Positions 4,167 through 64,000 of a stretch of 64,000 nt of DNA are shown here, piece by piece (position 1 is the stretch's first letter; every line of letters starts with the position of its first letter). The notes below the pieces were generated by a model, which was not told the DNA's origin, did not search any database, and was given only the letters and a program-made list of their open reading frames with translations. The position numbers and the translations under genes were made by a program. Source of the stretch: Methylacidiphilum caldifontis. GTDB taxonomy: Bacteria; Verrucomicrobiota; Verrucomicrobiia; Methylacidiphilales; CAMAQI01. Where the stretch lies: NCBI GenBank assembly GCA_945877805.1, contig CAMCSM010000004.1, forward strand, positions 1,582 through 65,581, written 5' to 3'.

Positions 4167-6386
4167 GTGATTTTATTGAATCGTATTCGACTCTTATTTC
4201 TTGGGTGGAAACGATTTGCTGATTTGCTTCAAACCTGTTTTTTTATTCTCCTTGCATCACTGTTGATCTCACTCCTTGTCCAAGAGGTGATGTATCAACC
4301 GAGAGGGGGGGGAGGTCGGTCGACAGAGTTTTTTTATGGCATGGCTTTGGTCATGCTCTTTTTTTTAAATTACAAAAAGTTAACCGTTGCCCGCTGGGTC
4401 GCTTTAATTGCGATCGTATGGACGACTTTGCTTTGGTTTGATCTCTTGTTGCCGGGAGCGATTGATGGGCCGATAGGGATCTTGTCATTTAAATCGATAG
4501 GAGATGAGTCTCTTTGTCTTTCTGCTTTTTCCGCGATTTCTCTTTTTGGATTAGGGTATCCGTTTTTCTGGATGGGAAAAAGTCGGATTGGGCTCATGAT
4601 TATTGTCGGGCTCGGAGTCTCCTTAATCGGTTTTTTACTCTTGAGTAAGATCGTTGTTTTTGAGCGCACGATCGATTTTTCGCATTTCTTGAGTTTATGT
4701 GCGGCCTCATTATTTTTAATTATTTTTGGAGCGGTCATTTTAGTGAAAGGGATTCAAGATTGCCTCGATGAGGGGACAGGATATTGGCCCCAGATCCCCT
4801 ATGCCGCAGCCTCTGTGATGTTTCTTTTAACGACGGTATTGTGGTCGGCTTTCCATATTCATGAACAACAGATTTGGACGCGAGAAGTCGAATCCTATAC
4901 CGTAAAGATCGGAGATCGACTCGGGCAAAAATTTCATGATCTCAGCTTGGAACTCGAGAGATTTAATCGATGGACATTTTATCGAGAGGGGAAATTGGCT
5001 TTAGAATGGCAGAAAGAGGCCCGTATTTTTTTAGATCATGAAAAAGCGGTTTTTTTCATCGATTATTTTCCTCGGTCAAGTTTAGAGGGAAAGATGGAGA
5101 GATCAAAAGAAGGGAATTCTTTTAACAGAATTTCCTATCAACAAATCGATTCGGCGGCACAGAAATCGATGTTGAATCATTCTCCCTGGATGACTGATCC
5201 TTTTATTATTCAAGAGGGCAGGTATGGGATCGGTTTTGTTTCGGTCTCTCATTCGCCCGGTCAACCTATCTCTGGATTCTTAATGGGGGTCGAGTTTGAG
5301 CCGCTTTTTAACGATCTCATCGACAATGAGAATATACCGATCGATTTTCAGCTGAAGTGTGGGAGTTTGACTTTAAGAGACTTTGAGGAAAAGGGAAGTT
5401 TTACAGATAAGAATCAATTTATAACAGAGATTTATTTATATGGGACTCGTTTCACGATTCATGCTGTGCCGAAAAAACTTTTTTTTCAAAAGCGGGATCA
5501 GTATTTATCTTTTTGTTTTTTTGTGGCCGGTCTTTCGTTCTCGTTATTATTTGGAATTTTAATTGGTCTCTACATACATCTGCATCATGACTCTTTAGAG
5601 TTGCGTGAGATTAACGATCGGCTGGGATTTGAAATCGAAGAACGGCGGAGTGCAGAGAGAGAGGGGGATCAAAAGAATCGAGATTTAGAGACATTAATCT
5701 ACGTCGTTGCTCATGATTTGAGGGAGCCACTACGAGGAATTGAAAGCTTTTCTCGACTCATCTACGAGCGCTATTTGGATCGCTTGGATGAAAAGGGGCA
5801 GGATTTTTTACGCAGAATCGTCTTTTCCTCGATGCGCTTAGATCGACTCCTCGACGATATTGCGATGCTTTCTCGAGTCCAAAGAGCAGAACCTCCCACT
5901 GCGCCGATCCCAGGGAGAGAGCTCGTTATGGAGGCGTTGAGTCGGTTAGAGGCGGTTTCGAAGGCGAAGAATGCGAATATTTCCGTTGAAAGGGATATTC
6001 CCTCCCTCTGGGTGAATCGGACATGGGGAACACAGGCGATCTTTAATTTAATTGGCAATGCGTTGAAGTTTACGAATCCCCATCAAGAGCCGGAGATTTT
6101 AGTGAAAGCCTATCGGAGCGAAAATGGAGAGCAGGAGGGGGTTCAGATATTAGATCGAGGGCCAGGGGTGAAGGCGGAGCATGTGGAGAGGATATTCAAG
6201 CTTTTTCAACGGGCGGTTGGGAGGGATATTGAGGGGACGGGGGCGGGACTCGCCATTGTGAAACAGATTGCCGAGCGTCATGGGGGGACCGTTTATTATG
6301 AGAATCGTGAGGGAGGGGGAAGTTGTTTTACGCTGACTTTTGCAAAGAGAGATCGATCTGTGATTCCCGAAAGTGAGGAGGGATGA
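4167..6386 (+). CDS. Multi-pass membrane sensor histidine kinase
   Basis: About 200 aa of hydrophobic helices at the N-terminus, H-box VVAHDLREPLR, and HATPase motifs NLIGNALKFT, DRGPGV, GTGAGLAIV. GTG start. Confidence 0.85.
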   Translation: MILLNRIRLLFLGWKRFADLLQTCFFILLASLLISLLVQEVMYQPRGGGGRSTEFFYGMALVMLFFLNYKKLTVARWVALIAIVWTTLLWFDLLLPGAIDGPIGILSFKSIGDESLCLSAFSAISLFGLGYPFFWMGKSRIGLMIIVGLGVSLIGFLLLSKIVVFERTIDFSHFLSLCAASLFLIIFGAVILVKGIQDCLDEGTGYWPQIPYAAASVMFLLTTVLWSAFHIHEQQIWTREVESYTVKIGDRLGQKFHDLSLELERFNRWTFYREGKLALEWQKEARIFLDHEKAVFFIDYFPRSSLEGKMERSKEGNSFNRISYQQIDSAAQKSMLNHSPWMTDPFIIQEGRYGIGFVSVSHSPGQPISGFLMGVEFEPLFNDLIDNENIPIDFQLKCGSLTLRDFEEKGSFTDKNQFITEIYLYGTRFTIHAVPKKLFFQKRDQYLSFCFFVAGLSFSLLFGILIGLYIHLHHDSLELREINDRLGFEIEERRSAEREGDQKNRDLETLIYVVAHDLREPLRGIESFSRLIYERYLDRLDEKGQDFLRRIVFSSMRLDRLLDDIAMLSRVQRAEPPTAPIPGRELVMEALSRLEAVSKAKNANISVERDIPSLWVNRTWGTQAIFNLIGNALKFTNPHQEPEILVKAYRSENGEQEGVQILDRGPGVKAEHVERIFKLFQRAVGRDIEGTGAGLAIVKQIAERHGGTVYYENREGGGSCFTLTFAKRDRSVIPESEEG

Positions 6387-6793
6387 GAGAGGTGAAATTT
6401 TTAATGGTCGATGACCATGAGGATGATTCAATTCTTTTTCGGGAGATGTTGGATGACTCCGGTTTTGTTGGAGGGGTTGTCAGCGTGGGTGGAGCGAAGG
6501 AGGCGTGGGAGTATTTAGAGGGGTTGCGGAGGAACGGTTTACAGGAGGAGGTCGGGATTATTTTTTTAGATTTGAATATGCCGATGAAAAATGGATTTGA
6601 ATTTTTGGATGAGTTGATGTCCGATTTTGACTTCAAGAAAATCCCGGTGATTATGGTTTCGGGAAGCCGACGCGAGAGCGAAAAAGAGAGGGCTCTATCG
6701 AAAGGGGCGATCGCTTATATCTCGAAACCGATTACCTTTGAGCATATCGTCACAGCAATTCAGGGGCTATCGATGAAATGGTCGCTCTCCTAG
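6383..6793 (+). CDS. Single-domain response regulator (CheY-like receiver)
   Basis: MVDDHEDD acidic pocket, FLDLNMPMKNGFEFL phospho-acceptor Asp region, SKGAIAYISKP. The ATGA start overlaps the upstream kinase stop. Confidence 0.85.
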   Translation: MREVKFLMVDDHEDDSILFREMLDDSGFVGGVVSVGGAKEAWEYLEGLRRNGLQEEVGIIFLDLNMPMKNGFEFLDELMSDFDFKKIPVIMVSGSRRESEKERALSKGAIAYISKPITFEHIVTAIQGLSMKWSLS

Positions 6794-6916
6794 TGAAGTA
6801 TTCTTTAAAACCTTTCCTTTCGTGTAGCGCAAAACCCATTGGAGCAAGGCTACAAATAGTAAAAAAAGCTGAGCCATTATCGTTTGGTACAGGGGCCACA
6901 GAAAACACTTAACTTT

Positions 6917-6950
6917 ATAATGGACAAAATATAAGAATTTTGTCCATTAT
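6917..6950. repeat. Perfect 14-bp inverted repeat with a 6-nt centre
   Basis: ataatggacaaaat-ataaga-attttgtccattat. It sits 11 nt upstream of the point where the truncated ATPase frame opens. Confidence 0.9.
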
Positions 6951-6960
6951 GACGTAATGA

Positions 6961-7980
6961 CTAAATTCACTTCTTGCGGCCATTGACGAAATTTACGGTA
7001 ACCCCCTCCATATTCTCTTTGATGAAATTCAAAATTTCCCCAAGTGGGAGCTTCTGATTAATCGTCTCCAGCGTTCCGGTAAACACCTGCTGATTACTGG
7101 CAGTAACGCCAATTTGCTCAGCAGTGAGCTTGCAACTCATCTTACCGGGCGTCATCAATCTGTAATTTTGCTTCCCTTTTCATTTTCAGAAATTTTAACA
7201 TCAACTGGAAAACAAAATACTTCGGCCGAAACATCCGCCGTTTTTGACAAATTTTTAATGGAAGGCGGCTACCCTGAGCCACTGTTGCGAGGGGCTAATC
7301 GAGTCGATTATCTACGTGATTTAGTTCGTGCAACCTTGCTAAAGGATATCGTCCGACGTTATAAAATTCGCTCCAGTGCTGGACTTGAAGATGTTGCCCA
7401 TTACTTTTTTTCAAATGTAGCAAAGGAGTTCTCCTTTAGGACTGTCGCATCGGTGGCTAGAGTTTCCAGTCCGACAACGGCCGAAAAGTATACTCGAATG
7501 CTTTGTGAATCATTTTTGATTTTCACACTAAACCGACTTACATTTAAAGCCCGTGAAAGAACTGCAGCTAACAAAAAGGCTTATGCCATCGATCCTGCTC
7601 TTGCTGTTTGCCTTGGAACAAGACCCGGACAAGATTTAGACAGACTCGCTGAAAATGTAATTGCTATTGCTTTGTGGCGTCGACAGATGGCTGGTGAAAT
7701 CGATCTTTTTTTCTGGAAAAGTAAAGAACTTCACGAAGTTGATTTTGTAATTAAAGAAAGAGGGAAGATCTCTCAACTCATTCAAGTGTGCGTCGATTTG
7801 TCAGACCCTCATACCAGAACACGCGAATTTAGGGCTCTTGTAAAGGCCAGTGAGGAATTACGGTGCAACGAGTTAATTTGTTTAACGAGAGGTCAAAATG
7901 CTGTGGAAGATTTCACATGGAATGGAACAACGGTTCAGATTCGGGTCATTTCCATGGAAGACTGGTTACAGCAGATCTAA
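6961..7980 (+). pseudogene. 5'-truncated AAA ATPase with DUF4143 C-terminal domain
   Basis: The frame is open from 6961, after an in-frame TGA at 6958-6960. It reads ...ILFDEIQNFPKWELLINRLQRSGKHLLITGSNANLLSSELATHLTGRHQSVILLPFSFSE, which is the Walker B region onward. The roughly 100-aa Walker A portion is missing and no plausible start exists before the TTG at 7114. Confidence 0.7.
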
Positions 7981-8360: not shown

Positions 8361-8683
8361 GGAACAGAGGATGGGGGATTTTTGACCCCTTTGCAATCCC
8401 CTCGGTTATGCTTCCTTCTGCGTTCAAATAAGCGACGACTTAAGGATAACAACAAAGCAAATTTCGCCAAGGAGATAAAATTCAATTTTAACCGTTTATC
8501 TTCACATATCGACATTCATCGAGGAATCTAAGCTTAAGATTTCACGTAAATAAACAGCAGAACTAGAAAAAACAAAACTTAGCTTATTTTTACTTAAAAA
8601 CAAGTAATATTATACAGTTATTATACAAGGGTATATCTTTATAATCAACGACTTACGACAATTTTTTACATTTCTTTGCTTGA

Positions 8684-10582: not shown

Positions 10583-12286
10583 ATGTCTTTGCGCAACCGA
10601 GCATTAATATTGACCTGCTGTTTAGCCCTTGGCTTTACGATCGTCTCGCTCCGGCTTGTGCAGATTCAGATTATGGATGGAGATCGATTCCATCAGGAAG
10701 CGATTCGAAATCATTTTGAGCGGGTCGAGGTGGCGCCGACTCGGGGGATGATTTTGGATTCGCATGGGACTATTTTAGCGAAGACGCATGTCGTTTATGA
10801 TGTTCGATTGGATGGGAAAGAGCTCAAGAGGCCTGAGCAGGATTTACCTTTAATTTCGAAGATCTTAGAGATTCCGTTGTCACAATTAAAAGAGGTCTAT
10901 TCCCCTACGAAACGTTTTGAGCTTTTGAAGACGAATCTTACGGAGGAGACGGTCTCGGCACTGAAGGATTTAAAATTAAAATCCCTTATTTTTGAGCGGA
11001 AGGCGATCCGTGCTTATCCGAATGGAGAGCATGCGAGTCATGCGATCGGATTTGTGGATCAGCAATGTTCAGGGGTTATGGGGATTGAGCGGTTGATGAA
11101 TAAAGAGCTCAAGGGGATTTCGGGGGAGCGCTGGATTGAACGGGATGTTCGTAAGCGAGAGATTGCGGCCTATCGACGTAAAGATGTGCGTTCCGTGGAT
11201 GGGATGAACGTTCAGTTGACTTTGGATTTGGGGATTCAACATGTGGTTGAGGAGTCGATTAGTCGCGTCATGGAGAAGACCAAAGCAAATGCGGTTTACT
11301 CGATTGTGATGCGGCCGAAGACGGGAGAGATTTTAGCGATGGCAAGTCGGCCGAACTTTGACCCGAATCAAGGAGGGGCGAAAGAGTTGAGTCAGTTGCG
11401 GAATCGTTGTTTGACGGATGTCGTTGAGCCGGGGTCGACCTTTAAGATTGTGACCTTAGCCGGAGTTTTGCAAGAGGGGTTGATGTCGCTGAATACGCAG
11501 ATTTTCTGTGAGAACGGAACTTTTTACTATGGAGGCAAATTACTTCATGATGATGAGGCGAATGGGGTTTTAACCGTTGAGGAGGTGTTGGCGCGTTCGA
11601 GTAATATTGGATTTTGTAAGATGGGATTGGCGCTGGGGGATGAACGACTTTATACCTACGCAAAGCAGTTTGGATTTGGAGCGGTCACCGGAATGATGAC
11701 GGGACAGGGGGAGAGTGCTGGAATTTTAAATCCGTTGCATCGCTGGACGAAGGTTTCGATTTCACGGATTCCGATGGGACATGAAATTGGGGTGACGCCG
11801 ATTCAAATGGTGAGCGCTTATAGTGCGATTGCGAATGGGGGAAGGCTGATGGAGCCGCGGTTGATCCGTTCGATTTCAGATAATCAAGGCAGAGTCCTTC
11901 GAGCCTTTCCTCCGCATGTGATTCGTCAGGTGATTCAGGAAAAGACAGCGAATCTTGTTTCTGAGGCATTGACGCGTGTCTTGTCTTCTGAGGGAACAGG
12001 AAAGCGTGCGAATGTTCCCGGTTTTACCGTTGCGGGAAAAACAGGGACGGCGCAGAAAGTGATTAATGGGGCATATTCTAAAGAAAAATATTTAGCCTCA
12101 TTTGTCGGTTATATGCCTCAGGAAAATCCGGAATTTGTTATTTTGGTGATGGTGGATGAGCCGAAGGGGCGTGAGTATCACGGCGGACAAGTGGCGGCTC
12201 CTGCTTTTTCAGAGATGGCGGCCCAGATTGCTCAGTCGCTTAATTTAGTTCCTAAAAGTGCTCCAGCAACAAAGGCGGCGCTATGA
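10583..12286 (+). CDS. ftsI: Peptidoglycan D,D-transpeptidase FtsI (PBP3-type)
   Basis: N-terminal TM helix, PBP dimerisation region, and transpeptidase motifs STFK (GSTFKIV), SSN and KTGT(AQK). I chose the ATG at 10583 because it lies just after the ftsL stop. Confidence 0.9.
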   Translation: MSLRNRALILTCCLALGFTIVSLRLVQIQIMDGDRFHQEAIRNHFERVEVAPTRGMILDSHGTILAKTHVVYDVRLDGKELKRPEQDLPLISKILEIPLSQLKEVYSPTKRFELLKTNLTEETVSALKDLKLKSLIFERKAIRAYPNGEHASHAIGFVDQQCSGVMGIERLMNKELKGISGERWIERDVRKREIAAYRRKDVRSVDGMNVQLTLDLGIQHVVEESISRVMEKTKANAVYSIVMRPKTGEILAMASRPNFDPNQGGAKELSQLRNRCLTDVVEPGSTFKIVTLAGVLQEGLMSLNTQIFCENGTFYYGGKLLHDDEANGVLTVEEVLARSSNIGFCKMGLALGDERLYTYAKQFGFGAVTGMMTGQGESAGILNPLHRWTKVSISRIPMGHEIGVTPIQMVSAYSAIANGGRLMEPRLIRSISDNQGRVLRAFPPHVIRQVIQEKTANLVSEALTRVLSSEGTGKRANVPGFTVAGKTGTAQKVINGAYSKEKYLASFVGYMPQENPEFVILVMVDEPKGREYHGGQVAAPAFSEMAAQIAQSLNLVPKSAPATKAAL

Positions 12287-27485: not shown

Positions 27486-27509
27486 TTCCATTTCTTGGAT
27501 TGGACTAAA

Positions 27510-27657
27510 CCTAGATTCGGCAGTTGAAATGGAGGGGCAGTGGCTCACTGCCTTCCCCGTAGCCCGAGGCACAGGGCCTGTGCCCCTCCAAATAGGACTC
27601 ACCCTTTGGGTGAAGGCTAATGGAGAGGTAAATGTGACTTCAACTGCCGAATTTAGG
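27510..27657. repeat. 148-bp element with 19-bp terminal inverted repeats that carries the 59-nt two-hairpin module M2
   Basis: The TIRs cctagattcggcagttgaa (27510-27528) and ttcaactgccgaatttagg (27639-27657) are complementary at 18/19 positions. M2 lies at 27531-27589. A second, inverted M2 copy is at 56391-56449. Confidence 0.85.
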
Positions 27658-27710: not shown

Positions 27711-27932
27711 TTTGGTTCCTTCCCGTTTGAAAGGGAAAGGGATAATTGCGGAAAAATTGCACGTTCACCTTTTGTGGTTAAATGGATTACCGCTAGGTTA
27801 ATAAGTTACAGAGCGTGTCACGGACTGCACTAGGCACATTCAGTAGGGTAAACTTTTTATTTATATCGCTCGTTTTTATTTAACCGATCGTCTATTTTTA
27901 ATTTTGCTCGATCTGATTAGTTTCTTGTGTTT

Positions 27933-32831: not shown

Positions 32832-32937
32832 AACCCAGAATTTTTGTATTCTGCGAAGCAAATTTCGTAGGTGGGGATTGACTTTCCGATGTCATGCTCT
32901 AGCAAAAAATCATTAATTTTAACAGGAAGTAGAAAAT

Positions 32938-34083
32938 ATGAGTGCAACGCCCGCTGTTTATAACCGTAATAATCCGTTTATGGCCTCGATTAAAGAGAAT
33001 CGTCTTCTCAATAAGGCCGGTTCGGAAAAGGATACTCGACATATCGTTGTCGATACCGCCGGCCAGGTTCCCTATCATGTCGGAGATTCGCTGGGGGTGA
33101 TTCCTCGTAATGTTCCGGCTGTGGTTGCAGATTTAATCGGCAAATTAAAGCTCGATCCGGAGACCCCGGTTCCTGCGGCGAATAATACTACGGTCACTCT
33201 GAAGGAGGCGTTGTCTTCTCAGTATATTTTGAATCGGGCGAGTAAGAAGTTCGTGAAGGGGATTGTGGAAAAGATTCCTGCCGGGGCTAAGAAGGAGGAG
33301 ATCACGGCGTTGATCGCCAATGAGCCAGCTTTGGATGAATATGTTTTTTCGAGAGATTATGTCGATGTCTTGAATGAGTGCGCAGGGGTGGAGTTGAGTG
33401 CGGTGGAGCTTTTAGGATTGGTGAATAAGGTCGCTCCTCGACTTTATTCGATCGCTTCTTCTTCAGTGGTTTATCCGAATGAGGTTCATTTGACCGTTGC
33501 TGTGGTGAAGTATGAGAGTCACGGTCGTCCGAAGATGGGGATCGCCTCTGGATATCTCGGCTATCATTCGGAGTCTGTTTTGACCCCTGTTTATACTCAG
33601 CCGACCCGTCATTTCCATTTGCCGCCGTTGGATAAGAATATCATTATGGTGGGACCGGGAACGGGGATTGCACCGTTTCGTGCCTTTTTGCAGGAACGCA
33701 AGGCGACAGGGGCAACCGGGAAGAACTGGCTTTATTTTGGAGATCAACGTCGTGCGACCGATTATTTGTACGAAGAGGAGCTGGAAGGGGCGGTCAAAGA
33801 GGGCTCGCTGCATCAGCTTGATTTGGCCTTCTCACGGGATCAGGCCGAGAAGATCTACGTCCAGACTCGGATGATGGAAAAGAGTGCTGAGATGTGGAAA
33901 TGGATTCAAGAGGGGGCTTATTTCTACGTCTGTGGAGATGCCAAGAGAATGGCGAGGGATGTGCATCAGGCGTTAATTGATATCGCCAAGAAAGAGGGGG
34001 GACTCTCTCAAGAGGCTGCGGAAGCCTATATCAATGTGACCTTTACGAAAGAGGAGAAACGTTATCTCAAGGACGTTTATTAA
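32938..34083 (+). CDS. CysJ-like FAD/NADPH oxidoreductase (FNR-type module only, no flavodoxin domain)
   Basis: RLYSIASS (FAD-binding RxYS), GPGTGIAPFRAF (NADPH-binding), YFYVCGDAKRMARDV and the terminal YLKDVY, as in sulfite reductase flavoprotein and CPR C-terminal halves. At 381 aa it is too short to include the FMN domain. Confidence 0.8.
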   Translation: MSATPAVYNRNNPFMASIKENRLLNKAGSEKDTRHIVVDTAGQVPYHVGDSLGVIPRNVPAVVADLIGKLKLDPETPVPAANNTTVTLKEALSSQYILNRASKKFVKGIVEKIPAGAKKEEITALIANEPALDEYVFSRDYVDVLNECAGVELSAVELLGLVNKVAPRLYSIASSSVVYPNEVHLTVAVVKYESHGRPKMGIASGYLGYHSESVLTPVYTQPTRHFHLPPLDKNIIMVGPGTGIAPFRAFLQERKATGATGKNWLYFGDQRRATDYLYEEELEGAVKEGSLHQLDLAFSRDQAEKIYVQTRMMEKSAEMWKWIQEGAYFYVCGDAKRMARDVHQALIDIAKKEGGLSQEAAEAYINVTFTKEEKRYLKDVY

Positions 34084-34172
34084 GAAATAATCAGGGAAGC
34101 CCGGTTTCCTTTTGAAAAAAGTGATATTTTTTACTTTACCTTCAAAATGAACTGGCTAGCAAAGGAATCCTT

Positions 34173-34328
34173 ATGGCACTTCATAGCAGTCTTCGTAGTT
34201 CATCGACAACCTCCGCAAAACGGAACGTTTTAAAACGTTTCGAACGCGTTGAATTGATCAAAAAGCGTGGTCAATGGAAAGAGGATATGAAAGTAATTGG
34301 TCTTCCGAAAACAAAGCCGGAAGCTTAA
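34173..34328 (+). CDS. Small basic protein, 51 aa (below the ORF-track length cut-off)
   Basis: AAAGGAA RBS at 34161-34167, then ATG at 34173. It encodes MALHSSLRSSSTTSAKRNVLKRFERVELIKKRGQWKEDMKVIGLPKTKPEA. From memory this resembles the conserved 'small basic protein' family seen in PVC bacteria. A strong terminator follows. Confidence 0.6.
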   Translation: MALHSSLRSSSTTSAKRNVLKRFERVELIKKRGQWKEDMKVIGLPKTKPEA

Positions 34329-34358
34329 TTTTTTTCCTCTTCATTAAAAATCAATTTC

Positions 34359-34406
34359 GATAGGATCTTCTCCTCGCTTTTTGAGGAAAAGATCCTATCT
34401 CTTTTC
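34359..34406 (+). terminator. Rho-independent terminator
   Basis: 17-bp stem gataggatcttctcctc / gaggaaaagatcctatc with one mismatch, a 7-nt loop, then the T-rich tract tcttttc. Confidence 0.8.
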
Positions 34407-34407
34407 T

Positions 34408-35106
34408 GTGAGAATTAACCAATTTTTAGCCCGTGCAGGGTACGGCTCTCGGCGCGCTTGTGAAGAACTTGTCGCCCAAGGGGCGGTCATGATTAATGGC
34501 GAGATCATTCAAGTCCTTGCGACGCAGGTGAATCCAGGGGACAAGGTGAAGGTCAATGGCTGTCACGTTGCGGTGAGTGATCAAACGATCACGGTGGCGA
34601 TGAATAAGCCGAAGAGTTATGTGTGTACGATGGATGATCCTCAAGATCGCCGTCGGATTTATGATTTATTGCCGAGCGATTTTCCTCGGGTGGTTTCGAT
34701 TGGGCGTTTGGATTATGACAGTGAGGGATTGATTCTCCTGACGAGCGATGGGGATCTTGCAAATGAATTGACGCATCCGAGCTCTAAAGTTCCGAAGACT
34801 TATGAAGTGGTGTTGGACCGTGATTTTGATTTTGAACTCTCTCCCCGTTTGAAGAAAGGGATTAATGTAGAGGGGAAAAGAGCGCGGATGGAGTCGATCC
34901 ATCGGATTGGACCGAAACAGTTACGGGTCGTTTTGACTCAGGGAATTAAGCGTCAAATTCGCTGGATGTTTTTTAAAGTTGGATACAAAGTGAAGAACCT
35001 GAAGCGGGTCCAGATTGGTAAATTCGAACTGGGTCGAATTCCGCTTGGAAAATGCAAAGTTTTGACACCTGAGGAGATCCAACAATGTCGAAGTCGAATG
35101 GCGTAA
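34408..35106 (+). CDS. Pseudouridine synthase, RsuA/RluB family (S4 domain plus catalytic domain)
   Basis: VRINQFLARAGYGSRRACEELV is the S4 domain and GRLDYDSEGLILLT is the catalytic-Asp motif. I moved the start to the in-frame GTG at 34408 because the track's TTG at 34381 lies inside the terminator hairpin. Confidence 0.85.
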   Translation: MRINQFLARAGYGSRRACEELVAQGAVMINGEIIQVLATQVNPGDKVKVNGCHVAVSDQTITVAMNKPKSYVCTMDDPQDRRRIYDLLPSDFPRVVSIGRLDYDSEGLILLTSDGDLANELTHPSSKVPKTYEVVLDRDFDFELSPRLKKGINVEGKRARMESIHRIGPKQLRVVLTQGIKRQIRWMFFKVGYKVKNLKRVQIGKFELGRIPLGKCKVLTPEEIQQCRSRMA

Positions 35107-36509
35107 AGAAGCGGGCAACAAAAGTTGCGAAAACTCAGTCTCAATCTCTTTGGGGGGGGCGTTTTGCCGAAAACCCTGCGGAGTTGCTTCAAAAATATTC
35201 TGAATCGGTCTCCTTTGATTGGCGTTTATATCGTCATGATATTCGCGGAAGTATTGCCCATGCGCGGATGTTGCAGAAGATTAAGGTTTTAACGGCTGGG
35301 GAATTTAAGGCGATTGAGGCGGGGCTGCTTCAGATTGAGAAAGAGATCTCTGAAGGAAAGTTTGTTTGGTGTGTCGATCGTGAAGATGTTCATATGAATA
35401 TCGAGGCGACCTTAACGAGCCGAGTCCCTGCGGGAGCAAAGTTACATACCGCTCGTAGTCGCAATGATCAGGTGGCGACCGATGTCCGTCTTTGGGTGCG
35501 AGATCAGATTTCTCAGAATCTTCATGCGATTCGATTTCTGCAAAAAACTTTAGTGGCTTGGGGGCAAAAGGATCTTCAGGTGATTATTCCTGGATTTACC
35601 CATCTTCAACGGGCCCAACCGGTTTTATTGGCGCATCACTTATTGGCTTATGTCGAAATGCTCGATCGGGATGCGGGACGATTGATCGATGCGCAGAAGC
35701 GGATGAATTTTCTTCCGTTGGGGAGCGGTGCGATTGCGGGGAGTACGATTGCCTTGGATCGGGAGTTTGTGGCGCAGCAGTTAGGATTTGAGGGGATCAC
35801 GCGAAATTCGATGGATGCGGTGAGTGATCGCGATTTTGTCGTTGAGTATTTGAGTGCCGTGGCACTGTGTGGGGTTCATCTTTCACGGCTTTCTGAGGAT
35901 TTGATCCTTTGGTCGAGTGCGGAGTTTGGATGGATTCGACTTTCGGATGCCTTTACCACGGGATCGAGTTTGATGCCGCAAAAAAAGAATCCGGATGTAG
36001 CCGAGCTTTGTCGTGGGAAGTCGGGGCGATTGATTGGAAATCTCGTCTCCCTTTTAGTTCTTCTGAAGGGATTGCCGATGACTTATAATCGCGATCTCCA
36101 AGAGGATAAGGAGCGGCTTTTTGATTCTGCGGATACCTTGCAGATGAGTTTAGAGATCATGGCCGCGATGCTCCAGCAGGTGGAGGTTCATGGGGCGAAG
36201 TGCCGTGAGGCGGCCTCGGATCCGTTGCTTTTAGCGACCGACCTTGCCGATTATTTAGTCAATAAAGGGGTTCCTTTTCGTCATGCTCATGAAATCGTCG
36301 GCAGAGCGGTGGCCTTGGCAGAGAAGCTTAAGGTTCCGTTGAATCAACTTGAAATGGCGGAGTGGAAGAATTTGAGTCCTCATTTTGGATCGGATATTCA
36401 AAACGTTTTTCAATTAGAGAACGCATTGAAGCGTCGTCCGATGGTCGGAGCCCCAAATCCAAAAAGAGTCGAGCAAGAGATTCAGCGCTGGAATAAACGT
36501 TTATCGTAA
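35085..36509 (+). CDS. argH: Argininosuccinate lyase
   Basis: LWGGRF, TARSRNDQVATD, GFTHLQRAQP and GSSLMPQKKNPD (the fumarate-lyase signature). Confidence 0.92.
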   Translation: MSKSNGVKKRATKVAKTQSQSLWGGRFAENPAELLQKYSESVSFDWRLYRHDIRGSIAHARMLQKIKVLTAGEFKAIEAGLLQIEKEISEGKFVWCVDREDVHMNIEATLTSRVPAGAKLHTARSRNDQVATDVRLWVRDQISQNLHAIRFLQKTLVAWGQKDLQVIIPGFTHLQRAQPVLLAHHLLAYVEMLDRDAGRLIDAQKRMNFLPLGSGAIAGSTIALDREFVAQQLGFEGITRNSMDAVSDRDFVVEYLSAVALCGVHLSRLSEDLILWSSAEFGWIRLSDAFTTGSSLMPQKKNPDVAELCRGKSGRLIGNLVSLLVLLKGLPMTYNRDLQEDKERLFDSADTLQMSLEIMAAMLQQVEVHGAKCREAASDPLLLATDLADYLVNKGVPFRHAHEIVGRAVALAEKLKVPLNQLEMAEWKNLSPHFGSDIQNVFQLENALKRRPMVGAPNPKRVEQEIQRWNKRLS

Positions 36510-36551
36510 GCGGAGTTGAAAAATCAGGATGCTCTTTCAGAGGATAAAAGA

Positions 36552-37382
36552 ATGAACCCTTGGTTTTCCTCCTTTGATTGTCTTGCTCCTGGAGATCAAA
36601 AATCGAGAGAGTTTGAGGGAGATGGAGTTGCGGTCACCTCGATTGAGTCATCGGATCATCCGTTGTTTGAACGGGCTTTTGCTGCCCTTTGGAGAGAGTT
36701 CGGAGAGAAGGCGGAGATTGAGCAGAGGTCGGTAATTCAGTCACGATTTGAATGGCAGGGGAGGCCGTTGAGTTCTGGGGCTCGCTATTTTTATCAACTT
36801 TTATGGATTGAAAAAGAGGGGGTTCCTTTAGGGGTGCGCGATCACACCGTGATCACTCATTCGGATCATCATCGGGTTATTGTTCATCTTTCTCATAATC
36901 TTCTTTTTCCTGTGTCGCGTCGAACGGGCTTGGCGGGGTGGATGAGGGCTTGGCCGTTGGTGTTTGCGAAGCGTTGTCAAAAGGAGTGGGGGATTGATCT
37001 TCCGATCACGTTGGTGGCAGAGATGGAGCCGATACAAATCGATAGTCCTGAACGATTGCCCCGATTGATCTCTGTTGAAAGAGCTGGTTTTTTGAAGATT
37101 GGTGAGTGGAATTATTTGCAGCCGGATTTTCGAGATCCTGCGGCGATTGATTCCTTAGGAGGGTCCGTTCCGTTGGAGATGAGTCTGGTGATTCGTCGAG
37201 TGGGAGAGGAGGGGATTGAGATGATTTCAGGGGAGGAACTTCACGGGTTAGCGAGGGGTCTCTATCGGATGTATGGGAGGGGTTTTCGAGAGCAGGAGAT
37301 GAGAGGCCCTTGGGAAAGAGAGGGAGCGATTGAGGGCCAGAAGGGTTATCCGCTTGTGAAACCGACTTTCTCCTCGCGCTGA
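36552..37382 (+). CDS. Hypothetical protein, possibly GNAT-like
   Basis: No confident family match. FPVSRRTGLAGWMRAW loosely resembles GNAT motif A (R-x-x-G-x-A). The start is ambiguous between the TTG at 36516 and the ATG at 36552. Confidence 0.45.
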   Translation: MNPWFSSFDCLAPGDQKSREFEGDGVAVTSIESSDHPLFERAFAALWREFGEKAEIEQRSVIQSRFEWQGRPLSSGARYFYQLLWIEKEGVPLGVRDHTVITHSDHHRVIVHLSHNLLFPVSRRTGLAGWMRAWPLVFAKRCQKEWGIDLPITLVAEMEPIQIDSPERLPRLISVERAGFLKIGEWNYLQPDFRDPAAIDSLGGSVPLEMSLVIRRVGEEGIEMISGEELHGLARGLYRMYGRGFREQEMRGPWEREGAIEGQKGYPLVKPTFSSR

Positions 37383-37395
37383 GAAAGAAGGGTTG

Positions 37396-37884
37396 AACCG
37401 CCAAGTTAAAGACAAAGTTCGCCAAGGTTATAAAATTCTATTTAAACCGCTTATCTTTACTCATTAAAAGGAGTCTCACACTAAAACACAAAGGAAAAGG
37501 CATTCAAAACCAGGTTTAACCTAAAAAAAGCAGTTGGAACCACGGATATCACGGATCACACGGATTTCCAATAATTTAGGGAAATTTGCACGTTCACCTT
37601 TTGGGTGAAGAGAAAAACGGAGATTAATTCTCATAAACTCCTCCATCCGTGGTATCTGTGTTATCCGTGGTTAAATGGATTGCCGAATTTAGGTTTAACC
37701 GCGGATGAACACGGATTTAAAACTTGGCGAATTTTGTCTTTAACTTGGCGGTTAAACATCTCTTTCGCCGCGTCGCTGCGCGAGGCACTCCTCTGTATTT
37801 TGAATGCCTTTTCCTTTGTGACTTTGTGCCTTGGTGTGAGACAGGTATTCAATGTCTTTAAGCTGCGTTAACTGCGGATTAATC
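37396..37884. repeat. About 490-bp gap built entirely of repeat modules, in interleaved inverted order A-B-C / C'-A'-B'
   Basis: A at 37396-37429 is complementary to A' at 37721-37756. B at 37473-37509 is complementary to B' at 37797-37842. C at 37538-37565 is complementary to C' at 37645-37672. Module D (gcgcgaggcactcctctg) lies at 37757-37800. Confidence 0.8.
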
Positions 37885-39030
37885 AAAGAGACGTCGCAGC
37901 TGCCAACGTAGGAGGGAGGTATGATGGGAGACGAAACCGGAAGCGATGAGGGCGATTCCGGCAGCGAGTTGGATAAATCGGGATTCCGTCCATCCGGGAG
38001 TGGGATCGAGGTGAAAGAGATCAGCGGTAAAGACGAGGATGACGACAATCACCCCTGAGCCTATGACCAGAAGTCTCATGACGATCAAGAGAGTGATTTG
38101 GGCGGGGGAAAGAACTTTGAGCCCCATCATTTTATAAGACCATCGACTGAAAAGTTGATTTTGAAGAAAGATCCCAGCGAGAACGAGCAGGAGTCCAGCG
38201 ATGAATTGACATCGTCGAGGCCAACCCCAACCGGGAGTGGGATCGAGACCCAGGAGATCGGCCCCTCCGACAAGGAACATGGTGAGCAATCCGGAGATAA
38301 GAAGAACTGCACGTGTAAACCAAGTGACAACGGCGCGAATCTTTTTTAAGGCCATGCGACCGAATTTTTTCATCAGCCAAATATGAATCGATCGGTCATA
38401 GAGAAGATAGCCAGCGAGAAGAAGTGTGAGTCCTGAGATAAATTGCATTTTTCGGGTATAACCCCAACCGGGAGTCGGATCGATTCCAAGCCAATCGGCA
38501 GCAAGAACAAGAAAAGTGCAGACGATCCCGACAGCGGCAAAGAGGACGCGAGTAAAAATTAAGATAGAGAAAGAGATAGCCCTCCAAAATTCAACACCAC
38601 AGCGACGGGTGATCGATTTCTGAATATTATCGCGCCACCAGTAAATCCAGAGCGTCATCAGCGCAAGCCCAAAAGAAAAAAGGACTCCTTCAATGGGTGA
38701 GGAGAGGTGTTTCGGGTGAGTTGAAGAGAGAAGGAGTTTCAAAAAAAGGAAGAGAGAGAGGATCATTCCAGAAAAAACAGAGGAACGGATTGTGAGATGA
38801 ATATTGAGGAGTAAAGGGGAAAGGAGTCGCGGAAAACCGGTCTGGAGAAAAATTCGTTTCATTTTCCATGAGCCGAGAATGATCGCTTGAACCACGCCGA
38901 TAGAGCCCAGGAGTTGAAGAGCGGTCGCGAGGAATAATTGCGAGGCAGGGGTTCGAAGACTCAGAATCATTGCCCCGATCCCACTGAGAAGGCTGAGGAG
39001 TCGAAAAAGGGTTAAGATTCTATTTCCCAT
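37879..39030 (-). CDS. Polytopic membrane protein with three tandem 79-aa repeats (motif DPTPGW)
   Basis: DPTPGW occurs at residues 184, 263 and 342, exactly 79 aa apart. Each occurrence is flanked by hydrophobic helices (ADWLGIDPTPGWGY.., ADLLGLDPTPGWGW.., ADLFHLDPTPGWTE..). Confidence 0.7.
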   Translation of the reverse strand: MGNRILTLFRLLSLLSGIGAMILSLRTPASQLFLATALQLLGSIGVVQAIILGSWKMKRIFLQTGFPRLLSPLLLNIHLTIRSSVFSGMILSLFLFLKLLLSSTHPKHLSSPIEGVLFSFGLALMTLWIYWWRDNIQKSITRRCGVEFWRAISFSILIFTRVLFAAVGIVCTFLVLAADWLGIDPTPGWGYTRKMQFISGLTLLLAGYLLYDRSIHIWLMKKFGRMALKKIRAVVTWFTRAVLLISGLLTMFLVGGADLLGLDPTPGWGWPRRCQFIAGLLLVLAGIFLQNQLFSRWSYKMMGLKVLSPAQITLLIVMRLLVIGSGVIVVILVFTADLFHLDPTPGWTESRFIQLAAGIALIASGFVSHHTSLLRWQLRRLFD

Positions 39031-45737: not shown

Positions 45738-45972
45738 ATTAAAAGGAGTCTCACATCAAGACGCTAAAACACAAAGTTCGATTTAAAACTCTCTGCGTCT
45801 CAGCGGCTCCGCGCGAGGCACTCCTCTGTATTTTTTATCATTTTCTTAAGTTTACGCCTATGGGTATTTGCGGGACGGCTCTCCCCTGTTTTGAATGGCT
45901 TTAAATCCGTGTTTATCCGTGGTTAAAAATGCCTTTAAATTCGTGCTCATTCGTGTCCATTGGTGGTTAAAA
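45738..45972. repeat. Run of repeat modules (B in reverse, D, and cacggat/attcgtg words)
   Basis: attaaaaggagtctcaca... (as at 37463-37509), ctctctgcgtctcagcggctccgcgcgaggcactcctctg, and aaatccgtgtttatccgtggttaaaaatgcctttaaattcgtgctcattcgtgtccattggtggttaaaaat. Confidence 0.75.
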
Positions 45973-48586: not shown

Positions 48587-48732
48587 TCACTTATTCTCGC
48601 TCCTCTCGGAAGCCGGGATAGCTGAATAGCTTGATAGCGAGTAAGCCGGATAGCTTAAATCCATTTAAAATGCAGGGGAAATTCTAATCCGCAGATGACG
48701 CAGATTTTCCTGCATTCCTTAAAGAAAAATGT

Positions 48733-48831
48733 CTTTTCCTTTGTGACTTCGTGTCTTCGTGTGAGACGGGTATTCAATGTCTTCAATCAGTGTAAATTAG
48801 CGAAAATTAGCGGTTCAAATTCTTTGCCTTT
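48733..48831 (+). repeat. Module B, 99 bp
   Basis: cttttcctttgtgacttcgtgtcttcgtgtgagacgggtattcaatgtcttcaatcagtgtaaattagcgaaaattagcggttcaaattctttgccttt. It is 92/99 identical to 54450-54548. The first half is shared with 37808-37857. Confidence 0.88.
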
Positions 48832-48838
48832 TTCTCTT

Positions 48839-51103: not shown

Positions 51104-51366
51104 TCTCACACGAAGCCGCTAAGGACACGAAGTGGAAAATTGCAACGACACACTGAGGTGATTCACTCTGTTTCCTCCTGCGTCGGAAAACACCTTCTGA
51201 GAATCTCTCCCGTTTCTTTGAAAAAAGGATTTTCAAAAACGATCGATCTTCTCCTCAGGGGCTCGGCTTCGCCTCTCCTGGAATCAACCTCGGGGTCTCC
51301 TTGTCTAATTCATAAAAAAAGGGGAAGGAGGTATTTAACTTCGTGTCGTTGTGCCTTCGCGTGAGA
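51104..51366. repeat. Inverted pair of B-type words flanking about 200 bp
   Basis: tctcacacgaagccgctaaggacacgaagt (51104-51133) against acttcgtgtcgttgtgccttcgcgtgaga (51338-51366). About 22/30 positions are complementary. Confidence 0.6.
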
Positions 51367-51489
51367 TAATGTTTTTAGGATACTGTTTGTTAAGTTGACG
51401 CCTATGCGCACCAGCGGAAGAAGAGGTTGCATCCCCGAAAAAGGATCAGTGCAGATCAGTGAAGATAAGCGGTTAAAAATGACTCTAAA

Positions 51490-51545
51490 AACTTGGCGAA
51501 TTTTGAATTTAACTTGGCGGTTAAGCCTCTCTTTCTCTGCGTCTG
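51490..51545 (+). repeat. Modules A' and D (truncated)
   Basis: aacttggcgaattttgaatttaacttggcggttaag is 33/36 identical to 37721-37756. It is followed by cctctctttctctgcgtctg. Confidence 0.85.
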
Positions 51546-51579
51546 AAATACCTTCTCTTGACGAATCTAGTTTTAAATT

Positions 51580-51641
51580 TGCTCTCGGAGTGACTCGAAC
51601 ACTCGACCCACCCCGAAAGAATTCGGGGTTGCTCTTTCCTA
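51580..51641 (-). pseudogene. tRNA-Arg-derived 3' fragment (part of the D arm, an altered anticodon arm, T arm, acceptor 3' strand)
   Basis: 51581-51610 is identical (30/30) to 51914-51943 of the intact tRNA. Similarity resumes at agagcaac on the far side of a replaced anticodon arm (accccgaattctttcggggt, 20 nt instead of 17). There is no 5' acceptor strand or D-stem 5' half. Confidence 0.75.
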
Positions 51642-51943
51642 ATCTTTCTTTTCCAGATAATATTGAATCAACTTGGGATTCTTTTTTGCTTTTAAATATC
51701 GCTCTAAATCTCTCGCTTCTTTAAGGTTTTTACATTCACGAGTAACAACCACAGACAATGGCCGTCCAATCCGTTTACTACTTGGACACGATCCATGTTG
51801 GTGATGGTCGAGACGACGTTGAAAATTATCAGTCGATCCTAAATAGTGTCGCCCTGTTGTCCCTTGAAGTAAATAAACGCAAATCACCTCAATCCTTTTC
51901 TTTTTTAAAATCTGCTCTCGGAGTGACTCGAACACTCGACCCA
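51581..51943 (-). mobile_element. Candidate GIY-YIG cassette bounded by 30-bp direct repeats derived from the tRNA 3' end
   Basis: The direct repeats gctctcggagtgactcgaacactcgaccca at 51581-51610 and 51914-51943 bracket the GIY-YIG ORF. No integrase or transposase is present. Confidence 0.4.
51639..51887 (-). CDS. GIY-YIG nuclease-superfamily small protein
   Basis: (V)ICVYLLQGTTGRHYLGSTDNFQRRLDHHQHG... is the GIY-YIG/URI core pattern. I chose the GTG at 51887 because AAGGA lies 5 nt upstream. The track's longer frame (to 51944) would begin inside the tRNA. Confidence 0.75.
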   Translation of the reverse strand: MICVYLLQGTTGRHYLGSTDNFQRRLDHHQHGSCPSSKRIGRPLSVVVTRECKNLKEARDLERYLKAKKNPKLIQYYLEKKD

Positions 51944-51986
51944 CGGATTAGAAATCCGTTGCTCTATCCAGCTGAGCTACGAGAGC
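51913..51986 (-). tRNA. tRNA-Arg (anticodon UCU)
   Basis: Manual cloverleaf: GCTCTCG-TA-GCTC-AGCTGGATA-GAGC-A-ACGGA-TTTCTAA-TCCGT-GGGTC-GAGTG-TTCGAGT-CACTC-CGAGAGC-A. All four stems are fully paired and CCA is not encoded. Confidence 0.93.
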
Positions 51987-54202: not shown

Positions 54203-54282
54203 AACCCCGACAAAGAGTACTCCGACACTAAACTCGGAGCAGGCGGGGCAGGAATTCGCCAAGAATTTTAAACCACTTATCC
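54203..54282 (+). repeat. Copy of the 1467-1533 module carrying a 24-bp nested hairpin insertion
   Basis: aaccccgacaaagagtac[tccgacactaaactcggagcaggc]ggggcaggaattcgccaaga...tttaaaccacttat. The bracketed 24 bp are absent from the 1467-1533 copy. Confidence 0.8.
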
Positions 54283-54406
54283 TCACTTATTTTCACTAAT
54301 CCAAATCCTCAAAACAGTGAGAATTTCGATCTTGATCGAAATCAAAGCCATGAAACAAACGAATCTCGCAAACGCGTTTGTGAAGATCGTTTTTCTCATG
54401 ATTTTG

Positions 54407-54445
54407 GATTCGTTCCGGCAGCCGGACGAATCTTTACTGTTTTTA
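54407..54445 (+). terminator. Terminator-like hairpin with a T tract, about 300 bp from the nearest stop codon
   Basis: gattcgt(t)ccgg-ca-gccggacgaatc followed by tttactgttttta. Confidence 0.5.
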
Positions 54446-54449
54446 ATGC

Positions 54450-54548
54450 CTTTTCCTTTGTGACTTCGTGTCTTGGTGTGAGACGGGTATTTAATGTCTT
54501 CAATCAGTGTAAATTAGCGTCGATTAGCGGTTTCAATTCTTTGCCTTT
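54450..54548 (+). repeat. Module B, 99 bp
   Basis: 92/99 identical to 48733-48831. Confidence 0.88.
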
Positions 54549-54639
54549 AATCTGGCGTTTAATCCCTGCCTTTCCTCTGCGTTCCTCATCGCCCTCGGCG
54601 GTTTAAAAATGCCTTTAATGCCTTTTTCCCATCAGCCTG

Positions 54640-54790
54640 CTCGGATTGAGGCTAATTGACCGATGGACTGATTGGCTGTTGGGTTTAAACCGATCAGCCA
54701 AAAGTCACTTTGCGACTGTACAGCCCATTAGTCCATTAGCCTCTCTTCCTCTATCCGTGTTCATTCGTGTCCATCCGTGGTTAATTCGGT
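54640..54790 (+). repeat. Element R1, copy a (MITE-like palindromic core gaggctaat...attagcctc plus ccgtg-word tail)
   Basis: 54640-54748 is 109/109 identical to 56190-56298. The ends are imperfect inverted repeats: gaggctaattgaccgatggactgattggctgt against acagcccattagtccattagcctc. Confidence 0.9.
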
Positions 54791-56189: not shown

Positions 56190-56325
56190 CTCGGATTGAG
56201 GCTAATTGACCGATGGACTGATTGGCTGTTGGGTTTAAACCGATCAGCCAAAAGTCACTTTGCGACTGTACAGCCCATTAGTCCATTAGCCTCTCTTCTC
56301 CGCCTCTTCCTCTATCCGTGTTTAT
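56190..56325 (+). repeat. Element R1, copy b
   Basis: Identical to copy a over 109 bp, then carries an 11-bp insertion (tccgcctcttc) that the third copy shares with one mismatch (cccgcctcttc). Confidence 0.9.
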
Positions 56326-56365: not shown

Positions 56366-56500
56366 TATCACCAAAATGGTGATAAAAAATGGAGGGGCAC
56401 AGGCTCTGTGCCTCATCGGACGGGGAAGGCAGTGGGCCACTGCCCCTCCAGTTCTAATGACGAATCTGGGTTTATCAGTGTCCATCCGTGGTTCCAACTG
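56366..56500. repeat. Second copy of the M2-bearing element (inverted relative to 27510-27657)
   Basis: M2 at 56391-56449. The flanking hairpin atcacc-aaaa-tggtgat corresponds to tcaccc-aaa-gggtga in copy 1. The flank cgaatctgggttta corresponds to cgaatctaggttta. It ends in atccgtggttccaactgcttttt, the reverse complement of 37525-37547. Confidence 0.8.
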
Positions 56501-63926: not shown

Positions 63927-64000
63927 CAAATGGACACTGATGAACACGGATAGAGGAAGAGGCGGGGAAGAGAGGCTAATGGACTAATGGGCTGTACAGT
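63927..64000 (-). repeat. Element R1, copy c (inverted, truncated by the window end)
   Basis: The reverse complement reads actgtacagcccattagtccattagcctctcttccccgcctcttcctctatccgtgttcat..., matching copies a and b. It also has an 11-bp insertion like copy b's, differing at one base. Confidence 0.85.

Follow-up and report, generated by a model that had tools for sequence, protein, structure and literature searches.

The window analysed here is the whole 64,000-nt stretch of contig CAMCSM010000004.1 (Methylacidiphilum caldifontis assembly GCA_945877805.1), a bacterial chromosome segment of ~46% G+C that carries a cell-division and cell-wall gene cluster including ftsA and ftsZ. Our subject is one of its intergenic gaps (37383-37878, 496 bp), which is built from short stuttered words arranged as the arms of hairpins. 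It separates two convergent genes. The upstream gene (36516-37382, plus strand, 288 amino acids) lies downstream of argH; the downstream gene (37879-39030, minus strand, 383 amino acids) encodes a membrane-protein-like product without Pfam match and contains three internal repeats at 37990-38514 with a spacing of 237 nt (79 amino acids). The nearest named homologues of the aspartate kinase encoded in the window are from Verrucomicrobia bacterium Tous-C9LFEB (80%), metagenome-assembled genomes (MAGs) of Candidatus Methylacidiphilales (78%) and Verrucomicrobium sp. GAS474 (76%), which points to an uncultured member of the Verrucomicrobiota as the source; a metagenome contig (ENA ERZ27280245) matches window positions 25085-46509 with 100% identity. 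The gap is an accumulation of stutter-arm hairpins devoid of an open reading frame (ORF), and we propose that these are probably non-autonomous members of a system linked to nuclease genes of the GxxExxY family.

Arms comprise two to three tandem words of 8-10 nt and, elsewhere, up to at least seven words. The words share the design CRC plus 5-6 nt (CACAAAGG, CACGAAGC, CGCAAAGAA, CGCAGAGA, CACGGAT, CGCCAAG), and the arms end, when read so that the words finish in GYG, in GYGGTTAA or GTGTGAG(A/G)C. A single arm is a direct tandem array without internal palindrome, and a hairpin needs two inverted arms; these are 26-33 nt long and 79-93% complementary, so that terminal inverted repeats are present.

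In the left part of the gap the arms lie on the minus strand. It begins with a D-like arm fragment (37377-37395), whose first position is the start of inverted-repeat arm I1 and which overlaps the last codons and the stop of the upstream gene. The left copy of the A arm follows (CGCCAAG words; 37392-37429), 92% identical to the A reference over 38/39 nt; it is the reverse complement of cttggcg-N15-cttggcggtt and pairs with 37720-37772. Next come an S arm with linker (ttcgccaagg...tttaaaccgcttatctttactcat; 37418-37465), 88% identical to the S reference, with copies at 1495-1534 (90%) and 8463-8502 (78%) and a match in inverted sense at 51455-51492, and a two-word B arm (gtctcacactaaaacacaaaggaaaaggcattc; 37466-37510) with inverted matches at 37798-37828 (90%), 54439-54471 (88%) and 48728-48754. 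In the alignment this B arm has one 8-nt word fewer than other B copies. An unstranded linker (37512-37537; 37525-37547 equals 56506-56484 at 100% over 23 nt) leads to an intact C-type hairpin on the plus strand (37538-37675), whose arms at 37538-37565 (CACGGAT x3) and 37645-37675 (ending in GTGGTTAAA) enclose a 79-nt loop with an inner mini-hairpin. A piece of this loop (37571-37603) recurs at 27742-27774, a period-9 array lies at 37541, and the RNA fold of the hairpin reaches -54 kcal/mol (z = -6.7).

To the right, unstranded linker fragments (37667-37693) are common with the gap after ftsZ (37667-37685 with 27774-27792, 95%; 37681-37693 with 27645-27657). They precede a solo C-type arm on the minus strand (tttaaccgcggatgaacacggatttaaa; 37694-37721), an inverted match to 45900-45927 (93%), whose ccgcggatgaacacggat string also adjoins a B hairpin in a metagenome locus of 64% G+C (L218). 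The remaining arms are on the plus strand: the right copy of A (cttggcg-N15-cttggcggttaaac; 37719-37757), which together with the start of D is 89% identical to 51488-51543 over 56 nt; a D arm (ctctttcgccgcgtcgctgcgcgaggcactcc...; 37758-37805), whose three copies in the window lie at 37761, 44666 (84%) and 45794 (78%); a three-word B arm with tail (cctttgtgactttgtgccttggtgtgagacaggtattcaatgtctt; 37798-37858), 92% identical to 54440-54500 and 91% to 48728-48783, with a period-8 array at 37814; and a short S-like arm (gctgcgttaactgcggattaa; 37859-37884), which overlaps the stop codon of the downstream gene and of which 37863-37881 matches 48703-48685 (89%). The arms form the inverted pairs A/A' (37377-37429 and 37720-37772; 53 nt, 85% complementary), B/B' (37479-37509 and 37798-37828; 31 nt, 90%) and C/C' (37538-37565 and 37645-37672; 28 nt, 86%). 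When folded as single-stranded DNA, the whole gap reaches -95.6 kcal/mol versus -54.7 +/- 4.4 for shuffles (z = -9.2), and single hairpin elements give z values between -4.9 and -9.6. Analogous pairs of other words occupy other gaps of the window (2672/2767, 44528/44630, 27500/27639 and 59249/59328; z = -4.9 to -8.3).

The first-pass annotation of this DNA had described the gap as lacking a plausible gene and as consisting wholly of stuttered modules, families A to D, that recur in both orientations across the window. The modules do recur in other intergenic regions, and every position listed for the four families could be located. ORFs in the gap gave no Pfam match, on which ground coding potential was rejected, and the stutters cannot hold a reading frame because a period of 8-10 nt is not a multiple of three. 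By blastn-short, nearly all of 37377-37881 matched elsewhere in the window; the exception was a part of the central loop (~37611-37644), which is unique, so that 'wholly' overstates the case slightly. Two thirds of the gap (66.7% of bases) lay within 12-mers found elsewhere in the window, whereas 300 genic segments of equal length averaged 15.4% and did not exceed 34.1%. The vocabulary is strongly intergenic: the words GTGGTTAAA and ATTAGCCTC occur 6 and 7 times, respectively, in intergenic DNA of the window and never in genes, and 19 of 26 tandem arrays of period 8-10 are intergenic, though intergenic DNA makes up 10.6% of the window. The A pattern TTGGCG-N15-TTGGCGGTT has exact matches at 1547, 37396(-), 37724 and 51493, and with up to two mismatches 6 matches were obtained in the window versus 0.14 expected from shuffles; a further A-family arm lies at 1446-1468. 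Copies of B were found at 37478-37510(-), 37798-37858, 45748-45776(-), 48728-48783 and 54445-54500, and copies of C at 37538, 37645, 45905, 54751, 56464 and 63930. The description of each module as two to three tandem words was borne out, while the suggested period of about one helical turn suits part of the words, the period being 8-10 nt and mostly 8 or 10. A protein-binding role of the periodicity, as a helical turn might imply, is hard to square with the frequent period of 8 nt.

What that annotation had missed is that the words are the arms of hairpin elements, and that their interleaving is a cyclic permutation of a B-S-A-D composite. The order B-S-A is found at 54445-54548 and at 48728-48833 (92% identity over 104 nt) and also in a close relative (L130, 249-392). 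S-A-D at 51445-51541 matches the reverse complement of 37377-37461 (80% over 85 nt), and A-D-B stands at 37719-37858. On the minus strand, the order in the left half is B-S-A-D, with D as a fragment; the right half is A-D-B-S, where the short S-like arm occupies the position that S takes after B in the B-S-A alignment. The gap is thus an intact C hairpin and a solo C-type arm between two inverted, cyclically permuted copies of B-S-A-D. The modules are indeed interleaved and not nested, as had been reported, because the two inverted composite copies (B>S>A>D>B) differ in cyclic phase. Serial arrangements also occur in unrelated contigs, in the form of same-orientation arm arrays (right arms only, with a 32-nt period, in L251) and of whole-hairpin arrays with a 92-nt period (L222, L251).

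The gap is a synteny breakpoint, since relatives carry either a short spacer and an unrelated gene or overlapping genes at this site. Collinearity of the window with a relative of 92% nucleotide identity (L121-L124) covers positions 32863-37372, beyond which that relative has a 37-bp spacer and then an unrelated downstream gene; in a relative with 82% identity the genes at the gap site overlap. The C-terminus of the upstream gene product reads ..FSSR* in the window versus ..CSK* in the 92% relative (L122), the repeat supplying the last codons and the stop. At other sites, relatives at 92% identity do possess B, C and S-A, together with a palindromic element of 150 nt, and a relative with 82% identity has kept an S-A pair (L127, 1650-1730) in which the sequence has diverged and the stutter is retained. 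In the spacer upstream of the aspartate kinase gene, the window and L130, whose aspartate kinase protein is 97% identical, differ by four discrete indels of 48, 151, 33 and 253 nt. B arms differ from one another by whole 8-nt words, and the gap itself holds a two-word and a three-word B arm. These comparisons show that the elements are dispersed DNA of selfish type, whose gain and loss between close relatives takes place in discrete blocks.

The aspartate kinase gene lies between two direct repeats of 109 nt (54640-54748 and 56190-56298), which are 100% identical and not present in L130; a third copy, in inverted orientation, is cut off by the end of the window (63939-64000), and copies differ by an 11-nt stutter insertion (tccgcctcttc). 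This 109-nt repeat looks like a recently active element. In a 75% relative (L128), the spacer orthologous to the gap contains a transfer-messenger RNA gene (6734-7089, minus strand; tag ANEELALAA) and an H1-type stutter hairpin at ~7230-7330.

We then asked how far the arms extend beyond this lineage. A genome of the same order whose aspartate kinase is 86% identical (73% at the DNA level; L131) has clean B-word hairpins of 110-130 nt in five spacers and a D-type hairpin in one spacer (~6290-6400). A metagenome scan with the pattern CTCACACNAAGNCACNAAGN{1,2}CACAAAG, which the reverse complement of the three-word B arm in the gap fits, yielded at least 120 loci (726 kb). B-type arms (CTCACACAAAGGCACAAAG...) are present at these at least 120 loci, at G+C contents of 33-70%, and typical B hairpins measure ~80-150 nt. 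Among the matches listed, 79 of 134 arms had an inverted partner, and spacer length peaked around 22-29 and 75-95 nt. In the window itself, the three-word pattern is matched by the B arms at 37814, 48739 and 54456, by an arm at 51109 and by the D arm at 45791; C, A and H1 arms share this design but use other words. As a random genome control we used 119 loci of named genomes, chance matches to TTGGCG-N15-TTGGCGGTT (15 specified bases) without module context. Arm density per 100 kb was 0.5 in this control, 7.8 in the window and 9.1 in its relatives. At the listed B-arm loci versus the random control, stutters of CACGGAT (11 versus 0), CACGAAT (20 versus 3), CRCAGAG (20 versus 1) and CGCAAAG (17 versus 1) were frequent, and control stutter patterns were not enriched. 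The random control did contain three-word arms in one Terriglobia, one Verrucomicrobiota and one Micavibrio genome, where the hairpins end in AACCRC...GYGGTT, as window arms do. Stutter arms of the same kind occur in at least five bacterial phyla, and these data show the word types B, C, D and H1 to be present in several of them.

Some of these loci have features of their own. A subfamily of B hairpins (L138, L139, L145, L171, L181, L203 and L230; contigs of 57-69% G+C) has conserved flanks, GGCGAAGCCCGCAACCCAATTCAAT before and AAACAACTTGTTTTTTAT after the hairpin, which suggests a larger conserved unit. The B-arm pattern also matched IMG/VR contigs (13 matches in 12 stretches, L280-L291), which may represent phage genome or host flank alike. 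A Verrucomicrobiota MAG (L272) has an intergenic vocabulary of its own, with CAAGTTTC/CAGGTTTC and CTGCTTT stutters in the gaps 869-926, 1122-1255, 5216-5457, 6286-6531 and 7360-7738, and C/S-type arms ending in GGTTAAAAATG, as at window positions 56463-56493.

When the ORFs next to arms were clustered, a single recurrent family emerged among the matches listed, namely GxxExxY (TIGR04256/PF13366). We examined 16 GxxExxY loci, of which 11 had been picked regardless of repeats, five of these from finished isolate replicons. CRC-type arms or hairpins stood directly beside the gene at 15 of the 16: at all five arm-selected loci; at one locus fetched by chance (L026), where 28-nt arms of 93% complementarity bracket the gene; at all five loci of homologues chosen by protein only (L254, L260, L265, L271 and L272, from Planctomycetota, Verrucomicrobiota and others); and in four of the five finished isolate replicons. 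In the latter, arms bracket the gene in Bacteroides finegoldii and Bernardetia, a hairpin lies downstream in Gemmatirosa, and an arm lies upstream in Sphingomonas. For comparison, two-word arms have a background density of 2.4 per 100 kb. Frequently the arms reach right up to the start and stop codons of GxxExxY genes, and in L131 B hairpins lie on both sides of the gene (11363-11740). Around genes for an identical GxxExxY protein (1201-1581 in L265), the upstream CACAAAGC words number five in L265 versus at least seven in L268, where a run of N marks an assembly gap at this upstream repeat, and the downstream words five versus three. These loci show that GxxExxY genes, which code for a minimal predicted PD-(D/E)XK nuclease, are directly flanked or bracketed by stutter arms.

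The GxxExxY protein has 125 amino acids, matches TIGR04256 and has D69, E79 and K81 as invariant residues. Its predicted model (pLDDT 94) is structurally closest to the Cas4 protein SSO0001, with other PD-(D/E)XK nucleases being similar, and at least 8000 homologues were obtained at E<=1e-10. A survey of the PD-(D/E)XK superfamily lists the function of GxxExxY as unknown and reports multiple horizontal transfers (PMC3424549). Our search for literature on Verrucomicrobia repeats, or on GxxExxY, PF13366 or TIGR04256 by name, returned nothing relevant. Several GxxExxY genes sit within conserved gene pairs, co-oriented with their neighbours (L254 1201-1578, L265 1201-1581, L275 492-920, L278 504-878), the few tens of bases on each side being filled by arms. 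Neighbours include PSD1-DUF1501 in two lineages of the PVC group (Planctomycetota/Verrucomicrobiota) and fabD-fabG in Sphingomonas parapaucimobilis; in Bacteroides finegoldii the gene lies downstream of radA.

By analogy with REPINs (hairpin-forming pairs of repetitive extragenic palindromic (REP) sequences) and their RAYT (REP-associated tyrosine transposase) gene, we infer that a selfish element population is represented in the gap by members without an ORF. The ORF-less hairpins would form the non-autonomous part of this population, and its ORF-bearing members would carry the GxxExxY nuclease. Spread may proceed by nuclease-induced breaks at or near arms and subsequent homology-directed copying between arms, as opposed to classical transposition. 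Such a process of breakage and copying between arms would account for the lack of target-site duplications, for arms clustering beside arms and for the same-orientation arrays; changes in word number would probably stem from replication slippage. More tentatively, stutter-arm hairpins and GxxExxY may together represent an undescribed selfish-element system that spans phyla, in which, by analogy with REPIN-RAYT, the role of a transposase would fall to a minimal PD-(D/E)XK nuclease that propagates or preserves the hairpins through break-induced copying from arm to arm. On that reading, the vocabulary of the window is the ORF-less population of the system, diversified into lineage-specific words.

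Several points weigh against this interpretation. By tblastn, no GxxExxY gene is present within the 64-kb window, and among the matches listed such a gene accompanies only ~4% of arm-selected loci. In Prevotella nigrescens a different stutter, directly oriented, flanks the GxxExxY gene. Gene and arms are linked by correlation: GxxExxY genes might simply prefer hairpins that already exist as sites of insertion, or the gene might use the hairpins as signals for RNA processing or termination. The S, GCAGGAA, GCCGAATA, CCATTAG and ATAGC words were not found outside the window lineage, and their membership in the system rests on shared design and adjacency only. As for the composite, the D-to-B junction is seen in one clear case (37758-37858) and one weak case (54565-54625).

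Among other explanations, the one that fares best holds that the hairpins are host-functional signals kept by selection, such as bidirectional terminators, RNase III sites, mRNA stabilisers (a role proposed for REPs) or protein-binding arrays. We consider it unlikely, although the hairpins are very stable, the gap between convergent genes is otherwise without recognisable terminators, and conservation of B cores is ~90% between genomes that share 73% DNA identity in the aspartate kinase gene. GxxExxY cassettes also lie inside operons, co-oriented and with arms abutting the ORF, and recall the intervening sequences of rRNA, whose stems are cut by RNase III. However, the arms have no preference for gene ends: counting those with a called gene on each side, divergent spacers held 20, convergent ones 9 and tandem ones 44, roughly in line with a background of 15.7, 17.9 and 50.3 kb, respectively. 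Hairpin positions are not conserved between close relatives, and solo arms and same-orientation arrays are unable to form hairpins. Within 37200-38050 one terminator-like site was found versus 0.8 expected, and it lies outside the modules. Mismatches in the stems showed no clear G-U-compatible bias on one strand, in a test that is skewed by arm selection.

Derivation from DDE transposons, with the hairpins as MITEs (miniature transposable elements with inverted repeats), is in our view improbable. Terminal inverted arms, sizes of 80-150 nt and presence/absence differences between relatives would agree with it, and one element of the window does fit: a 151-nt palindrome (54279-54429) with 9-bp flanking repeats. 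The stutter hairpins, however, are not classical MITEs, because 34 complete B hairpins lack target-site duplications, the similarity of their flanks equalling that of shuffled pairings. No transposase gene was found between arms; for pairs 250-1400 nt apart in the 726 kb, GxxExxY was the sole recurrent ORF among the matches listed. Same-orientation arm arrays and changes in word number are, moreover, atypical of MITE termini. The 151-nt palindromic element is unrelated to the stutter hairpins and behaves like a true MITE: its flanking direct repeats, ATCCTCACT and ATCTTTACT, lie within an S arm, it is not present in L130, and it occupies a different locus in L122 (339-472).

That the modules are REPINs, or repeats of the REP and bacterial interspersed mosaic element (BIME) type, mobilised by a RAYT, an HUH tyrosine transposase encoded elsewhere in the genome, appears very unlikely. 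Mosaic clusters of short repeats in both orientations are BIME-like, inverted unit pairs with a spacer are REPIN-like, and target-site duplications are absent from REPINs too in the accounts given in PMC3116915 and PMC2817692. The hairpins are nevertheless not REPs, because their single arms are non-palindromic and lack GTAG/CGTC heads. The arms are direct stutters instead of the imperfect palindromes of 20-40 nt that define REPs; they start with CTCACAC or TTAACCRC and not with the heads that PMC3733652 describes for REP superfamilies; and the repeat-flanked gene encodes a PD-(D/E)XK nuclease instead of a Y1 transposase.

Neutral microsatellite-like debris, produced in unconstrained intergenic DNA by slippage and occasional segmental duplication without element identity and named in the first-pass annotation as the contrary outcome, is likewise scarcely credible: word number does vary by whole words, an 11-nt stutter insertion separates otherwise identical 109-nt copies and tandem arrays exist at word, arm and whole-hairpin level (L222, L251), yet long modules have many copies that are 85-100% identical and keep a fixed, non-random order, are present at other sites in sister genomes, and share with several phyla words that stand in inverted pairs beside one gene family, while control stutter patterns are not enriched. 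Recurrence across genomes already contradicts this explanation, and the finished isolate replicons argue against an assembly or contamination artefact.

Known functional classes were tried as well. With Rfam 15, the window gave tRNA only at gathering score, the gap nothing at E<=1, and 20 hairpin-bearing loci tRNA only, and a known RNA family was therefore rejected; the arm sequences were not found in the literature searched. The earlier statement that no described function is known for such repeats agrees with these searches. Terminators and promoters in the gap were rejected, neither being above chance. A replication origin with DnaA boxes (TTATCCGTG resembling TTATCCACA) was dismissed because across the window cumulative GC skew climbs with hardly any reversal, and because many gaps contain the words. 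DNA uptake sequences (GCGGTTAA plus AT tract) were discarded since the motif is intergenic only and part of longer modules, decoys of CsrA type with GGA motifs (CACGGAT, CAGGAAT) since the motifs are paired in stems and occur on both strands, and integron attC core sites (GTTAAAC) since the motif holds too little information and no cassette structure is present.

Two further duplications were noted in the window. An 85-nt GC-rich inverted repeat pair (27506-27590 and 56390-56474; 86% identical; GGAGGGGCA...TGCCCCTCC) forms a long stem with internal bulges (z = -3.6) and has no Rfam match. A 46-nt duplicate of the 3' part of tRNA-Arg(TCT) (51913-51986, minus strand) lies 333 nt away (51566-51611 versus 51899-51944, 91%) and may be a remnant of the attachment site of an integrated element.

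The steady link between gene and repeats suggests a substrate for GxxExxY, an abundant family whose function is open to nuclease assays and to the comparison of occupied and empty sites. If the repeats are indeed its non-autonomous partners, the pair would constitute a second, mechanistically different long-lived association of a repeat population with an enzyme in bacterial genomes. Stutter-arm elements mark synteny breakpoints and can rewrite gene termini, as in the upstream gene here, and they may yield spurious small ORFs. The contigs that carry them are often very short or end near the elements, consistent with repeats interrupting metagenome assemblies.

Set beside known systems, the elements differ from intrinsic terminators, which combine a short G+C-rich stem with a T run at gene 3' ends, in that arms are not enriched in convergent spacers. 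With the short tandemly repeated repetitive (STRR) sequences of heterocystous cyanobacteria they share short tandem words that are intergenic only and dispersed over the genome. STRRs are heptamer arrays without inverted-arm hairpin architecture, whereas the period here is 8-10 nt with 2-7 copies; STRRs are not known to bracket a gene family. The intervening sequences of 23S rRNA, with a small ORF in the loop of a long stem, have the same layout as arm-GxxExxY-arm. The elements described here, in contrast, lie in ordinary intergenic spacers and operon junctions and not in rRNA helices, their ORF is of another family, and most copies are ORF-less.

Correia elements of Neisseria (CREE/NEMIS) and other bacterial MITEs are likewise intergenic, ~100-150 bp long and bounded by inverted termini of 26-30 nt; they too exist in many copies, some at rearrangement points, and may give rise to long RNA hairpins. 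Stutter hairpins are distinguished by the lack of a TA or other target-site duplication and by termini that are internally stuttered with a variable number of words, and no related transposase-bearing insertion sequence was found for arm pairs in the 726 kb among the matches listed. The closest parallel is the REPIN-RAYT system, with short intergenic repeats that form hairpins as inverted pairs around a spacer, mosaic arrays in both orientations, no target-site duplications, and a protein gene that is itself flanked by the genome-dispersed repeats. Horizontal transfer, as reported for GxxExxY (PMC3424549), differs from the mode of RAYTs, which are single-copy and vertically inherited as far as the published account covers them. 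Here, moreover, the arms are tandem words of 8-10 nt in place of palindromic REP units with a GTAG/CGTC head, the flanked gene codes for a 125-amino-acid PD-(D/E)XK protein of the GxxExxY family in place of an HUH Y1 transposase, and the same arm sequence is common to several phyla.

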